Shown: positions 43,582 to 47,891, counted from the stretch's first letter. The stretch: 64,000 bases of DNA from Rikenella microfusus (GCA_020722575.1 DYKN01000001.1:130795-194794), one strand, 5' to 3'. The notes: a model not told the origin generated them from the sequence alone. Translations and numbers: made by a program.

Positions 43582-43601
43582 AAATGAACATTTGTTCATT
43601 T
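43582..43601. promoter_or_regulatory. Palindromic operator candidate aaaTGAACA-tt-TGTTCAttt in a divergent intergenic region
   Basis: Perfect 9+9 inverted repeat. On the minus strand it is immediately followed by a TAAATTTG -7 box upstream of the ferredoxin/NifX/HD operon. Confidence 0.5.
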
Positions 43602-43626
43602 AGACTAATTTTAAACAAAAAATTCC

Positions 43627-44128
43627 ATGACAATTTCAATGCTTCCAGATTATCAATCGGGTCCACATATACCTGCAGAACATGGATTGTCATACTTCAT
43701 TGAATATGAGGGGAAAAGATTACTTTTCGATACCGGGCAGAGCGATATGTTTTTAAAAAATGCAGAGGCAATGAAGATCAGTATGACAGATATTGATATG
43801 GTTATATTAAGTCATGGTCATTTTGATCACGGTAACGGACTTGGTTATTTGTCAGGCAGCAGCATGATTTACCATCCGGGATGTTTCGTCAAGAGATACA
43901 GGAAAAGAGACCATACTTATATAGGACTTAAAAATTCAAAAGAAGAGTTATCATTATTGTTTAATTTAATTACTTCGGCAGAACCTTATAAAATTTCCGA
44001 GAAGATATTTTCCCTGGGGTAGATACCGCGTTTGATCGGGTTTGAATCACAAACCACCTCTTTTGTTTTTGAAGACGGTAACCCTGACTATGTTAAGGAT
44101 GACTGCGGGATGGTGAAAAAGTCTGGAT
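43627..44128 (+). pseudogene. MBL-fold metallo-hydrolase gene with an in-frame TAG and a 3' truncation
   Basis: The His motif SHGHFDHGNG is present. The ORF stops at 44020-44022, but the same frame continues as IPRLIGFESQ...DDCGMV with family-like sequence. It then ends at a junction with a FeoB fragment. Confidence 0.6.
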
Positions 44129-44135
44129 GAGATTA

Positions 44136-44278
44136 AAGTGGTTCATCAAAGAAGCAGTGCCCTTTGTTCTGGTAGGGGTTTAATTACCAATCTCCTTTAT
44201 ACTTTTGGGATTATCCAGTTTATCGGAAAAATAGCAGCCCCTGTTTTTAATCATTTTTTAGGTTTGCCTCAGCTATAA
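44136..44278 (+). pseudogene. Frameshifted internal fragment of ferrous iron transporter FeoB
   Basis: KWFIKEAVPFVLVGV* is followed, after a frame change, by LITNLLYTFGIIQFIGKIAAPVFNHFLGLPQL*. This matches the FeoB membrane-domain pattern. Confidence 0.5.
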
Positions 44279-44340
44279 TGGTTTTATCTGCCCTGCTTAC
44301 CGGAAGGGGTGTTAAATTTAATCTTATCTGTAACACTCAC

Positions 44341-44454
44341 TTAAAAAGAGTTCTCATAAACCTTTTCAAGGGAACCAAAGCCCAAAGTATTGTAAACTGT
44401 GTAAAAACAGTTAATTGTTTTACTTGTCAGATCTTTATGCAATAGTTCGTTCAT
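44341..44454 (-). pseudogene. Truncated GxxExxY-family (PD-(D/E)XK-like) gene fragment
   Basis: The 37-codon ORF is MNELLHKDLTSKTINCFYTVYNTLGFGSLEKVYENSF*. It ends right after the GxxExxY motif. Confidence 0.5.
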
Positions 44455-44639
44455 ATCGTTAGTTTTTAATGGCACGCGGATAACACGGGTTTAACGGATT
44501 TGCACTGAAACAACCCTCCAATCGTTTTATATCAACGAGCTTCATGATTTATTAACAAAAAAGCAGGTCTGCATTCATGCTGAAATTAGTGCATCAAATA
44601 ATATTTTTCAAAAGAATTTTTTAGTCTAATTCTAATTGG

Positions 44640-44647
44640 TAATTTTG
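44640..44647 (+). promoter_or_regulatory. Candidate -7 box TAATTTTG upstream of arsR-like gene
   Basis: Matches TAnnTTTG and lies 27 nt upstream of the ATG at 44675. No clear -33 TTTG was found. Confidence 0.3.
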
Positions 44648-44674
44648 CCAAATTATAAAATAATAAGTTGATTA

Positions 44675-45032: not shown

Positions 45033-45422
45033 ATGAATGAATTTGAAAAAGTTATCGTCAGTATGGATTTTAGTTTTTTTGCTACCGGTAAACATAAAAT
45101 TGATGCAGTTAGCTTTCTTGTATCTCAAAATGCTATACTTTTAGATGTTAGAGCAAACGAAGAAATCGCAACAATCAAATTACATCTTAAGCATCATTTA
45201 CCCGTGATTGAAATACCTTTCAATGAACTACCTTCGAAAATTGACCAATTACCAAAAGATAAATTCATAGGCGTATTTTGTTCTAGTGGAGTAAGAAGCG
45301 CTATCTCTATGGCTTATCTTAAAAGCAAGGGTTTCGAAAATGTTAAGATGATTGAAGGTGGTTATACCCAATTAATGGAAGCATTAATGCCATGTAAAAT
45401 TCATAAGCATATCAATAAATAG
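45033..45422 (+). CDS. Rhodanese-like domain protein
   Basis: The active-site loop is FCSSGVRSA, and ILLDVRANEE lies upstream. Confidence 0.8.
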   Translation: MNEFEKVIVSMDFSFFATGKHKIDAVSFLVSQNAILLDVRANEEIATIKLHLKHHLPVIEIPFNELPSKIDQLPKDKFIGVFCSSGVRSAISMAYLKSKGFENVKMIEGGYTQLMEALMPCKIHKHINK

Positions 45423-45431
45423 GGATTATCT

Positions 45432-46226
45432 ATGAACATATGGCTATTAGCATTTATTATACTGCTTATTGCAGTATTTATGGTTATGACCGGTCATGGT
45501 GGTGGTAATTTTTTTATCATTGCTTTAGTTCTTGCAGGCATTGATATGCATGTTGCTGCCACATCTGTGCAATTTATTTTGTTTACAGCAGCTTTTTTTG
45601 CCATGCTGGTTTTTGGAAGAAAAAAGTTCGTTGAATGGAAACTGGCGGTTCTCATGGGCATATTAATTGGAATATCTGCTTTTGCCGGCGGATTTTTCTC
45701 CAGGTATGTTGATGAAAAACCGCTTAAGCTTATCTTGTCGATATTACTTTTTATTCTTGCCATGTTGATGATAAAACCTGTAAAAGGCGAGGTAATACAA
45801 AACATTAAAACAGGCTGGAGATACTTGCCTGTTAAATCGTTTGACGATACAGCTATATATTACATTAATCTGTTAATAGTGGTTCCTGTTGTTTTATCCT
45901 TTGGATTTATTGCGGGTATGGTTGGCATCTCGGGAGGATCTTTTATGGTTCCATTATTAGTATTGGCGTGTAGTGTGCCCATGAAAAATGCGGTTGCCAC
46001 AGCAAGCACATTGGTTGCTGTTTCAGCTTTGTTTGGTTTTGCAGGGCATGTCATTTCCGGTCATTTTGATTATAATATAGCTGTTCCGCTTGCCATAGGA
46101 GGTGCAATTGGAGGAATCATAGGGGGAAGCATAGCAATAAAATCCAAACCTAAACTGTTGAAAATTCTTTTTGCAGTTACAACTCTTGTTGCAGCTGTTA
46201 TTATGACATATAAAGTCTTTTATTAA
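45432..46226 (+). CDS. TauE/SafE family sulfite/anion exporter
   Basis: 264 aa, 7-8 TM. Shows an internal duplication with G-rich helices (GISGGSFMVPLL). Confidence 0.75.
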   Translation: MNIWLLAFIILLIAVFMVMTGHGGGNFFIIALVLAGIDMHVAATSVQFILFTAAFFAMLVFGRKKFVEWKLAVLMGILIGISAFAGGFFSRYVDEKPLKLILSILLFILAMLMIKPVKGEVIQNIKTGWRYLPVKSFDDTAIYYINLLIVVPVVLSFGFIAGMVGISGGSFMVPLLVLACSVPMKNAVATASTLVAVSALFGFAGHVISGHFDYNIAVPLAIGGAIGGIIGGSIAIKSKPKLLKILFAVTTLVAAVIMTYKVFY

Positions 46227-46293
46227 TAAAAAACCATTTACTTTACAAAAAGAGGGGTTATACTAAGCCCCTCTTTGTTTAATTGAATGTATT

Positions 46294-47643
46294 ATGATAA
46301 TAAATAGAATTTATTTTTGCTTTTTTCTGGCAATAATTGCAAATACGGGTCTGTTTGGGCAAAAGGATACTTCCAGGATATTTTTTGATGCCAGCTTGCG
46401 AGAACGTTTTGAATCGTGGAATGGGATGAATGCTAGGAATTATGGAGACCCGAATGGGGTTGGCAACCTTGATGATAATATTTTATTTCAAAGAGTTATT
46501 GCTGGATTTAACTATACCCCGAACAATAAAATAACCATATCAGCCCACCTGCAGGACTCACGGGCGTTTGGCTGGTCATTGCGAAATGCAGAATATCCTG
46601 ATTTGTTTAAGATAAAAGCAAAGAATACGCAAGAGCCCTATTATATAATGAACCCAAACGAAGAGTTTTATGAAATTCATGATTTATATTTGGAATATCG
46701 TTATTTACTAAAAAATATTACGATTAAAGCAGGAAGGCAAAAAATATCCTATGGCGACAATCGTGTTTTTGACCCCGGTGAATGGGGAAATACAGGTCGA
46801 TGGACATGGGATGCACTTAAAATATCTTATAAAAAAAGATCGAATTTTATAGACATTTTTTGCGGTGGCACTAAAATTCACGACCCTGAGAAAGTTTCAA
46901 TACCTTTTACTAAAACAGAATTCTGGGGAGGTGGCATATATGCACAATATGAGTGGAGCAAAATTATGACTGTTGAACCCTTTTATGCAATAAAAAAAGA
47001 GGGATCAGCAGATTACTCCAATGAACTTGATTTCACAAGACAATGGGCGGGAGTACGTTTGTTCAATAATGATTTGCATCATTTTGTTTATGATTTTACA
47101 TTGAACAAAGAATTCGGAAATGAAAGCGGCAAATCAATAAATGCTTTCGGAATAATAGCCAAACTGGGATATCAATTCAATTTTGTGCCGGCTAAACCAA
47201 TACTTGCTATCAGGGAAAGTTATGCATCAGGAGGCAAAAATACTGATAATAAGATTAATACATTCGACCCTGTTTATGGATCAAAAGATCAATTTTACGG
47301 AAGGATGAATATTACATCATGGTCTAATCTGGATGACCGCGAAATATTTGTCACTCTGTCTCCTGTTAAGAACATGAAAATTGAAATGAACTATCACTGG
47401 TTTTACATACCTGTACCTGATGATATAACATTGCTCACAACAGTAAAATTAAAAACAGGCAACCATCATTTAGGTAATGAGTTTGACATTTTTGCCAATT
47501 ATCAGATATTAAAGCAACTGCAATTCATAACTGCTTTTGGGTATTTCAAACCCGGGGATATCCAACCCATAAATACACATGAAGCTAAATACGCAACATG
47601 GTTTGCCTTACAAATACTTTATGATATGAAATTCAGTAACTAA
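46294..47643 (+). CDS. Alginate-export-like outer-membrane beta-barrel (porin)
   Basis: Has a signal peptide, LRERFESWNG, alternating beta-strand periodicity and a C-terminal ...KFSN. The family call is tentative. Confidence 0.55.
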   Translation: MIINRIYFCFFLAIIANTGLFGQKDTSRIFFDASLRERFESWNGMNARNYGDPNGVGNLDDNILFQRVIAGFNYTPNNKITISAHLQDSRAFGWSLRNAEYPDLFKIKAKNTQEPYYIMNPNEEFYEIHDLYLEYRYLLKNITIKAGRQKISYGDNRVFDPGEWGNTGRWTWDALKISYKKRSNFIDIFCGGTKIHDPEKVSIPFTKTEFWGGGIYAQYEWSKIMTVEPFYAIKKEGSADYSNELDFTRQWAGVRLFNNDLHHFVYDFTLNKEFGNESGKSINAFGIIAKLGYQFNFVPAKPILAIRESYASGGKNTDNKINTFDPVYGSKDQFYGRMNITSWSNLDDREIFVTLSPVKNMKIEMNYHWFYIPVPDDITLLTTVKLKTGNHHLGNEFDIFANYQILKQLQFITAFGYFKPGDIQPINTHEAKYATWFALQILYDMKFSN

Positions 47644-47654
47644 TTGTTGACGAT

Positions 47655-47736
47655 TTAAAGGTCGAGTAAGTAAGGGGGAGTTTCACCCCCAAACCTCTAT
47701 CGGAACTGTACGTGAGCCTCTCGATTCATACGACTC
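47655..47736 (-). mobile_element. Group II intron 3'-end remnant (domain V and a D6-like hairpin)
   Basis: Minus strand 47736-47703 reads GAGUCGUAU-GAAUC-GAGA-GGCUC-AC-GUACAGUUC. That gives a D5 architecture with a GNRA loop and an AC bulge. About 25 of 34 nt match the classic D5 sequence as I recall it. A GGGGG/CCCCC hairpin follows. Confidence 0.45.
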
Positions 47737-47803
47737 CTTAAACTCATGCAACCTGTTTTAAGTAAAATATATCAAATAAATAACAAAAATATTTTTATTA
47801 ATG

Positions 47804-47817
47804 TGAACATATGTTCA
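47804..47817. promoter_or_regulatory. Palindromic operator candidate TGAACA-ta-TGTTCA upstream of the DUF5320 gene
   Basis: Perfect 14-bp palindrome with the same half-sites as 43585-43598. It lies 10 nt upstream of a TATATTTG -7 box (47828-47835). Confidence 0.5.
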
Positions 47818-47891
47818 TTTTAAATGTTATATTTGCTTTGTAATAAAAAATGTAATTAAAAAATAAACCGAACAATTAAAAATTAAGTATT

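Follow-up and report, generated by a model that had tools for sequence, protein, structure and literature searches.

The 64,000-nt stretch of Rikenella microfusus DNA analysed here (GCA_020722575.1, DYKN01000001.1:130795-194794, or C207:130795-194794; hereafter the window) carries the perfect palindrome TGAACA-N2-TGTTCA in two promoters. Operator 1, TGAACAttTGTTCA, lies at 43585-43598 (extended form aaaTGAACAttTGTTCAttt, 43582-43601), in the divergent region between a ferredoxin/NifX/HD operon on the minus strand and an MBL-fold pseudogene on the plus strand. Operator 2, TGAACAtaTGTTCA, lies at 47804-47817, within the promoter of a DUF5320 gene. From the comparisons presented below, the two palindromes are probably operators of one regulon, and its regulator is most likely the single DUF134 protein of this genome, rather than the ArsR or FNR proteins encoded in the window.

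No other exact TGAACA-N2-TGTTCA is present in the window. Dinucleotide shuffles gave an expectation of 0.01 sites, and none of 100 shuffles reached two. When up to two mismatches were allowed, 10 matches were found against 4.9 expected, thus the perfect sites alone stand out. On the minus strand, a -7 box, TAAATTTG (plus-strand 43575-43582), is found 2 nt past operator 1, and on the plus strand the box TATATTTG (47828-47835) is found exactly 10 nt past operator 2. Both fit the Bacteroidetes -7 consensus TAnnTTTG. An earlier note on this DNA had described the two palindromes and a -7 box at each, and had seen no third full site by eye. Its sequences and coordinates are correct as written, both boxes are present with the gaps given above, and the exact-match scan returned just the two sites. 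The half-sites it also listed (24572-24578 and 43253-43259) are single hexamers of no demonstrable significance.

The whole assembly (3.45 Mb, 207 contigs, 38.6% GC) contains six exact sites, for about 0.4 expected from base composition. Five of them are intergenic and adjoin the same gene families; the sixth is intragenic, within coding sequence, and scores low with a 24-nt position weight matrix (PWM) trained on 41 sites of other genomes. This matrix was built on exact cores only, and hence under-scores degenerate sites. It detected eight sites in the genome, on four contigs, with scores of 20 to 33, the next best match being at 14. Operator 2 is the best of all (33.0) and operator 1 the third best (30.2). 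The flanking sequences of the eight sites resemble each other no more than shuffled sequence does, which means that the sites are no repeat-element copies.

Conservation was followed in a panel of 41 genomes of the same genus and order, the source genome and 40 relatives. Exact sites with an A/T spacer are found before DUF134-led operons (L002, L009 (twice), L018, L019 and L025), before DUF5320 in DUF134-MBL-DUF5320 clusters (L011 and L021), and before an MBL-fold gene whose surroundings (L014) are in partial synteny with the window. Those with a G/C spacer lie inside coding sequences and are chance-like. All eight full-length DUF5320 genes of the 41 genomes have a site 68-172 nt before the start codon, exact in seven cases and with one mismatch in the eighth.

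A larger set of 109 DUF134-centred loci (477 kb, from Bacteroidales, Marinilabiliales, Flavobacteriales and Cytophagales) gave TGAAC-N4-GTTCA as the conserved core. It occurs 73 times in this set, versus 0 in three reversed or permuted controls and 0-1 in first-order Markov simulations, and half-sites of the TGAAC type outnumber those of the TGAAT type by 73 to 7. The genes downstream of non-coding sites are enriched for DUF134 (38, as autoregulation would predict), DUF5320 (20, plus several short forms), MBL-fold (5) and NifX-like (4-6) genes. Further classes are divergent thioesterase or methyltransferase genes, and a separate ArsR/SmtB-FeoAB class (3). Counted per whole genome, the relaxed core TGAAC-N4-GTTCA occurs about as often as the reversed pattern. 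Specificity requires the centre bases and the AT flanks.

That the palindromes are chance matches, repeat fragments or RNA hairpins, with no regulatory role, can hardly be credited. Short palindromes do abound in AT-rich intergenic DNA, and the per-genome count of the relaxed core also speaks for such a reading. However, exact sites are far above expectation, they are kept at orthologous promoters, and their flanks are unrelated. A 6-bp stem with a 2-nt loop does not make a stable hairpin. The earlier note had proposed that one dimeric regulator co-controls both promoters and ties DUF5320 to the ferredoxin/NifX/HD operon, an idea that would fail if the motif were at chance frequency in the AT-rich intergenic DNA of this genome, or absent upstream of orthologous genes in relatives. 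The opposite was found on both counts, and the enrichment of downstream genes together with the DUF5320 conservation supports the proposal.

The sites are associated with DUF134. The sequence TGAACATATGTTCA is present in 10 of 25 panel genomes having DUF134, and in none of 16 genomes without it (Fisher p = 0.003). At 36 loci, a site is found 11-253 nt before the DUF134 start codon; in the subfamily with the long distances, a small membrane-protein gene leads the operon. No other DNA-binding gene recurs beside the sites. Moreover, the inner bases of the operator track a residue of the DUF134 helix-turn-helix. In cis, proteins of the '..TRIYNxAL' type go with TGAACG-type operators (14 loci) and those of the 'TR[LIV]Y[DEA]xAR' type with TGAACA/T-type operators (22 loci), while L101, from a different subfamily, has one G-type half-site and a DUF134 with IINQ. 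In trans, four Flavobacteriales genomes whose sole DUF134 is of the G type contain G-type sites only, and one of the four has a second TGAACGTACGTTCA before a DUF5320-like gene.

One DUF134 subfamily is marked by 'MARPxKSRKISNPPKMKGFKPYG' (L034, L035, L038, L039, L042, L045, L055 and L131). It is always encoded behind an 81-aa Cys-rich membrane protein, and its operator, TGAACG(Y)AGGTTCA, stands before the small membrane-protein gene, ~250 nt from the DUF134 start codon.

DUF134 proteins are stand-alone helix-turn-helix proteins of 100-190 aa (sigma-70-region-4 / DeoR type) that have a basic arm at the N terminus and, in most cases, a Cys4 ribbon. Their closest solved relative is the DNA-binding domain of Bacillus subtilis DeoR, of the SorC family (7bhy/8r7y; hidden Markov model E = 1.6e-4, 40% identity over ~40 residues, rmsd 0.6-0.7 Å). 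The AlphaFold model of DUF134 (predicted local distance difference test score 75.8 overall, >87 for residues 31-80) agrees with sigma-70 region 4 and with operator-bound DeoR to 0.5-0.7 Å over 40-50 residues. The recognition helix reads NISRPTVSRL in DeoR and NISRPTFTRL in DUF134, within the same sigma-70-region-4-type helix-turn-helix. The DeoR domain is reported to recognise 5'-TTGAACA-3' in the left half-operator of dra-nupC-pdp, with base contacts made by R34 and R39 (PMC11229326); the half-site here is (a)TGAACA. According to our own alignment, R34 and R39 would be the two arginines of NISRPTVSR, and would align with R63 and R68 of DUF134, which are invariant (NISRPTFTR).

The operators are alike as well. 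In both systems a palindrome with TGAA-N6-TTCA spacing overlaps the promoter, the native DeoR spacing being equal to that of TGAA-CATATG-TTCA by our own reading of the OL18 description (PMC11229326), and the repressor role being a prediction on the DUF134 side. DeoR differs by its large SorC sugar-phosphate effector domain, its tetrameric state, its 39-bp bipartite operator and its function in nucleoside catabolism (PMC11229326), whereas DUF134 sites are single palindromes of 14-20 bp with metal-sulfur gene targets. No SorC domain was found by Pfam or NCBIfam in DUF134 proteins (98-190 aa, Cys4 ribbon only). A full-text search of the literature returned no DUF134 binding site or regulon, and nothing relevant on DUF5320.

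The single DUF134 gene of this genome (C44:81480-81776, 88.8 bits) lies outside the window, on a contig that matches in GC content. Its helix-turn-helix is of the 'LYDKAR' type, therefore a TGAACA-type operator is predicted, as found in the window. The gene follows those of a dCMP deaminase and an S41 peptidase in a putative operon, which is preceded by a one-mismatch site, TGAAAAATTGTTCA. We take this site as weak evidence of DUF134 autoregulation. Within the conserved 'DDYWYRC', a TAA codon (C44:81774-81776) stands where Tyr would be encoded, so that the protein ends at residue 98 and the Cys4 ribbon is lost. Past the stop, half of the ribbon can still be read ('WYRCDECNETMSTPKPAR'), until a tRNA gene on the opposite strand is reached (C44:81480-82000; L001:1492-2010).

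A third relaxed-core match of the window, TGAACCGGAGTTCA (30419-30432), is intergenic, with a TATATTTG box 7 nt downstream, and is followed by a methyltransferase-like gene (237 aa, named by eye). It is probably due to chance, because its G/C centre does not fit the DUF134 type of this genome and its PWM score is low.

Positions relative to the promoter were compiled from the relatives and from this genome. In 27 site-to-gene orientations the TAnnTTTG box starts 0-2 nt past the site, and in 29 the gap is 9-11 nt. One helical turn separates these classes, and the window holds one example of each. The 9-11 nt class accounts for 12 of 21 DUF5320 promoters. In the small-gap class, the site is often preceded, at 5 nt, by a TTTG; the -33/-7 spacing is then normal and the operator takes up the whole spacer.

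In the mechanism that we propose, a DUF134 dimer would recognise (a)TGAAC-N4-GTTCA(t) through the two TGAAC(A) half-sites. At operator 1, it would occupy the -33/-7 spacer of the Bacteroidetes-type promoter; at operator 2, it would overlap the -33 region, one helical turn further upstream. Bound DUF134 would exclude RNA polymerase, and it is the position of the sites at the core promoter that points to repression. An activation of the MerR kind is unlikely, because the -33/-7 spacing is normal. The C-terminal Cys4 module would presumably sense the signal, and a metal or Fe-S species is suspected. NifX/IssA-like, ferredoxin and MinD-ferredoxin genes abound in the regulon, and feoAB adjoins DUF134 clusters in relatives.

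The earlier note had suggested two regulators encoded in the window, the FNR-type protein at 23655-24347 (minus strand) and the ArsR-type protein at 44675-45016. Neither suggestion found support. Crp/Fnr-family boxes have the form TTGAT-N4-ATCAA, and the PrfA box is TTAACA-N2-TGTTAA. Binding of the palindromes by a Crp/Fnr-type regulator, such as the FNR-like protein, would agree with this comparably symmetric layout (5-N4-5 or 6-N2-6). Furthermore, orthologs of the FNR-type protein are often encoded 2-20 kb from the DUF134 clusters of relatives, and a Crp/Fnr gene neighbours DUF134 in L029, another being close to a site in L066. We nevertheless consider such a regulator very unlikely. Of the 10 site-bearing genomes (the source genome among them), 4 have no FNR-type ortholog (>=37% identity), and G037 gave no Crp/Fnr match at E <= 1e-20. 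Conversely, orthologs are present in G023 and G025, which have neither DUF134 nor sites. The FNR gene has no site of its own. Where sites do occur, they adjoin the -7 box or overlap the -33 region instead of being centred near -41.5, as for a class II activator; their sequence differs too.

The classical 12-2-12 operator of the ArsR/SmtB family (SmtB, CzrA) has a TGAACA-xx-TrTTCA core. A repressor of this family could thus be envisaged, either the Cys-rich ArsR protein of the window (44675-45016) or the Feo-linked ArsR/SmtB protein encoded at C2:10197-10562, but we consider this very unlikely as well. The gene at 44675 sits between the two window sites. It has no ortholog in any of the 40 relatives, many of them site-bearing (best match 39% identity), and no site upstream of itself, and it was rejected as the regulator on these grounds. 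NCBIfam describes its product, with its Cys-rich C-terminus, as a BigR/TsoR-like sulfur regulator, which probably controls its own rhodanese-TauE-porin operon.

The Feo-linked gene is preceded by TGAATAATTGTTCA in this genome, and by an exact TGAACA(A/G)TTGTTCA in L005, L026 and L027. Five of the 10 site-bearing genomes lack its product, and G017, with no DUF134 and a Feo-type site only, has it. The Feo-type sites have other flanks and another spacer (tTGAACA-AT-TGTTCAtatata), and the copy of this genome scores <12 with the regulon PWM. With ArsR/SmtB operators in general, and with the FeoAB operator of this clade, the palindromes share a near-identical 14-bp core and the repressor position; the differences are the winged-helix fold of the proteins, the flanks and spacer, and a distribution independent of DUF134 and of the DUF5320/NifX sites. 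In this genome, as in L005, L026 and L027, the arrangement is an ArsR/SmtB (alpha-5-type DxH...H)-FeoA-FeoB operon with its own operator, TGAA(T/C)A-AT-TGTTCA (C2:10174-10187 here). We read it as a separate regulon with a look-alike operator, because it is distributed among the genomes independently of the DUF134-type sites. Cross-talk between the Feo ArsR/SmtB and DUF134 regulators is conceivable.

Several points weigh against DUF134 as the regulator. The case is comparative as a whole. Sites before DUF134 genes would be equally expected if DUF134 were a mere member of the regulon. The covariation of operator and helix-turn-helix comes mostly from one subfamily, with cases that are phylogenetically non-independent. 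An unrelated regulator, the Feo-linked ArsR/SmtB, uses a near-identical 14-mer core, so that the core alone cannot name the protein that binds it. Repression, as opposed to activation, is read from site position only. In this genome, DUF134 is encoded on another contig than the window, next to no strong site, and without its Cys4 ribbon it might be non-functional. Finally, the assembly is a metagenome-assembled genome with 7% estimated contamination.

Some of these points would suit a different transcription factor acting on real operators, with DUF134 merely a frequent member of its regulon. Location before DUF134 genes cannot separate regulator from target, and five perfect sites persist here with an unlinked and truncated DUF134. 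Such a factor is unlikely in our view. It would have to account for the confinement of sites to genomes with DUF134 (10/25 versus 0/16), for operator inner bases that follow the DUF134 helix-turn-helix residues both in cis and across genomes, and for a DUF134 recognition helix near-identical to that of DeoR, a reader of TTGAACA, when no other DNA-binding gene recurs at the sites.

If DUF134 is the regulator, its targets in this genome would be at least eight promoters on four contigs, comprising two DUF5320 genes, NifX/IssA-like, MBL-fold and ferredoxin genes, a NifX-NifX-DUF89-radical SAM-MinD/ferredoxin operon, and a few others. Besides window 47804 (DUF5320) and window 43585 (the ferredoxin/NifX/HD operon on the minus strand, the MBL-fold pseudogene on the plus strand), three sites are on C100. 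The one at C100:14712 precedes two NifX-like genes, a DUF89/ARMT1-like gene, a radical SAM gene and a MinD-ferredoxin ATPase gene; the one at C100:5630 precedes MBL-fold then DUF5320 genes, with a divergent DUF4405 membrane protein; and the one at C100:6489 precedes DUF5320. On C95, the site at 5465 serves a NifX-like gene and a divergent UDG-superfamily gene, and the site at 2513 a cupin (named by eye) and a ferredoxin. The last, C174:42419, lies between a peptide deformylase gene with an Fe-S (HdrC-like) gene and a divergent glyoxalase-like gene, all three named by eye. Several of the flanking-gene identities at the eight sites are Pfam assignments.

By its gene content, the regulon would be an orange-protein/IssA-like set for iron-sulfur or metal-sulfide handling. 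In Desulfovibrio vulgaris, orange-protein (ORP) clusters are under the sigma-54 activator OrpR (PMC8359166, PMC3897727, PMC6345978). Shared with these clusters are the NifX-like (Nitro_FeMo-Co) proteins, the MinD/Mrp-type ATPases with Fe-S domains, the restriction to anaerobes and the co-regulated divergent promoters. An enhancer-binding activator with an Fe-S PAS domain and sigma-54 promoters are proper to Desulfovibrio, whereas here we find Bacteroidetes -33/-7 promoters, a palindrome in repressor position, another predicted regulator, and genes spread over at least four contigs. Our literature search gave no published regulator of such ORP clusters outside Desulfovibrio (OrpR).

The second known system is IssA of Pyrococcus furiosus, an iron-sulfur (thioferrate) storage protein whose cationic glycine-rich tail binds thioferrate, an uncharacterised clade of non-thermophiles with such tails being named 'IssX' (PMC5524996). 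The protein encoded at 42523-43047 likewise has an IPR003731-type NifX-like domain and a disordered cationic glycine-rich tail. Its tail differs in being made of GRG(M)G repeats; the paper ties no IssA regulation to DUF134. GRG(M)G repeat tails are present in both the NifX-like (42523-42690) and the DUF5320 (47988-48090) proteins, and both are reminiscent of the IssA tail.

DUF134 (UPF0251/COG1342; PF02001) and DUF5320 are widespread families without assigned function, which now receive a testable role. A concrete operator is offered, (a)TGAAC-N4-GTTCA(t), as well as a specificity rule, by which Asn in the recognition region goes with G at operator position 6. The promoter geometry is defined for the unusual -33/-7 promoter of Bacteroidetes, and the target list joins DUF5320, IssA-like NifX proteins, MBL-fold proteins and ferredoxins, thereby giving a handle on iron-sulfur control of the orange-protein/IssA type in anaerobic Bacteroidota. 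As a mechanism, repression by a helix-turn-helix protein bound to a palindrome is conventional; here it would involve families that are uncharacterised. A bolder reading, speculative and rather doubtful, is that DUF134 is a dedicated sensor-repressor of the metal-sulfide (ORP/IssA-like) genes of anaerobes across Bacteroidota, that its Cys4 module reads the iron-sulfur load, and that this genome carries a natural 'sensor-less' allele, with the helix-turn-helix intact and the Cys4 tail cut off by the stop codon. If true, the sensor-less DUF134 would keep the dispersed eight-promoter regulon permanently repressed or uninducible, and permanent repression could explain the decay of the genes flanking operator 1 (MBL-fold and zinc-ribbon-ferredoxin).

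Leftward from operator 1, on the minus strand, the first gene of the operon (43089-43519) joins a CPxCG zinc-ribbon module to a 2x[4Fe-4S] ferredoxin, and an apparent -1 frameshift near 43405-43410 divides it: one frame reads CICPQCGYSKPHKAGS, and the -1 frame carries on as IACREETCPHCKTSLVR, followed by the 2x[4Fe-4S] ferredoxin, as if one base had been lost. This could be an assembly error or genuine. Stand-alone CPxCG proteins (CICxxCG..PH.KG.PCR...CP.CG) are intact in the relatives L036 and L139. The next gene (42523-43047, minus strand) encodes the NifX-like (Nitro_FeMo-Co) protein with its cationic GRG(M)G tail of the IssA type, and the last (41717-42526, minus strand) an HD-domain hydrolase, whose homolog in the relative L076 is likewise beside a site.

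Rightward, on the plus strand, the MBL-fold gene remnant (43627-44115) has an in-frame TAG (44020-44022), and its homology stops near 44115. It is 64% identical to an intact, site-controlled paralog (C100:5680-6459). A frameshifted fragment follows (to 44290), with a sub-threshold Pfam match to the Gate domain (28 bits), a domain present in FeoB, which is consistent with a feoB remnant; a tblastn search with the FeoB protein of this genome gave no match in the debris at 44130-44290. Between the two sites, co-directional genes (44675-47643) encode the ArsR-type regulator, a rhodanese, a TauE/SafE exporter and an alginate-export-type porin. No TGAAC site was found in this sulfur-related block. 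The DUF5320 gene (47892-48248, plus strand; PF17253, 8.6e-23) encodes 118 aa with the GRG(M)G repeat region, and the C-terminal part of the protein looks by eye like a coiled coil.

Two further candidates were tried and rejected. The LexA 'Cheo box', GAAC-N4-GTTC, is found before SOS genes (lexA, recA, uvrA). None of the eight genome sites is before an SOS gene, the nearest DNA-repair gene being the UDG-superfamily gene divergent from a NifX-like gene. As to an RNA element, Rfam returned just a weak fragment of RF00029 (Group II catalytic intron), at 47661-47738 on the minus strand, which covers all 77 model positions at 27.4 bits, for a gathering threshold of 40 (E = 0.024). It is placed between the porin gene and the DUF5320 promoter, does not overlap operator 2, and is possibly the 3' end (domains V/VI) of a group II intron remnant.

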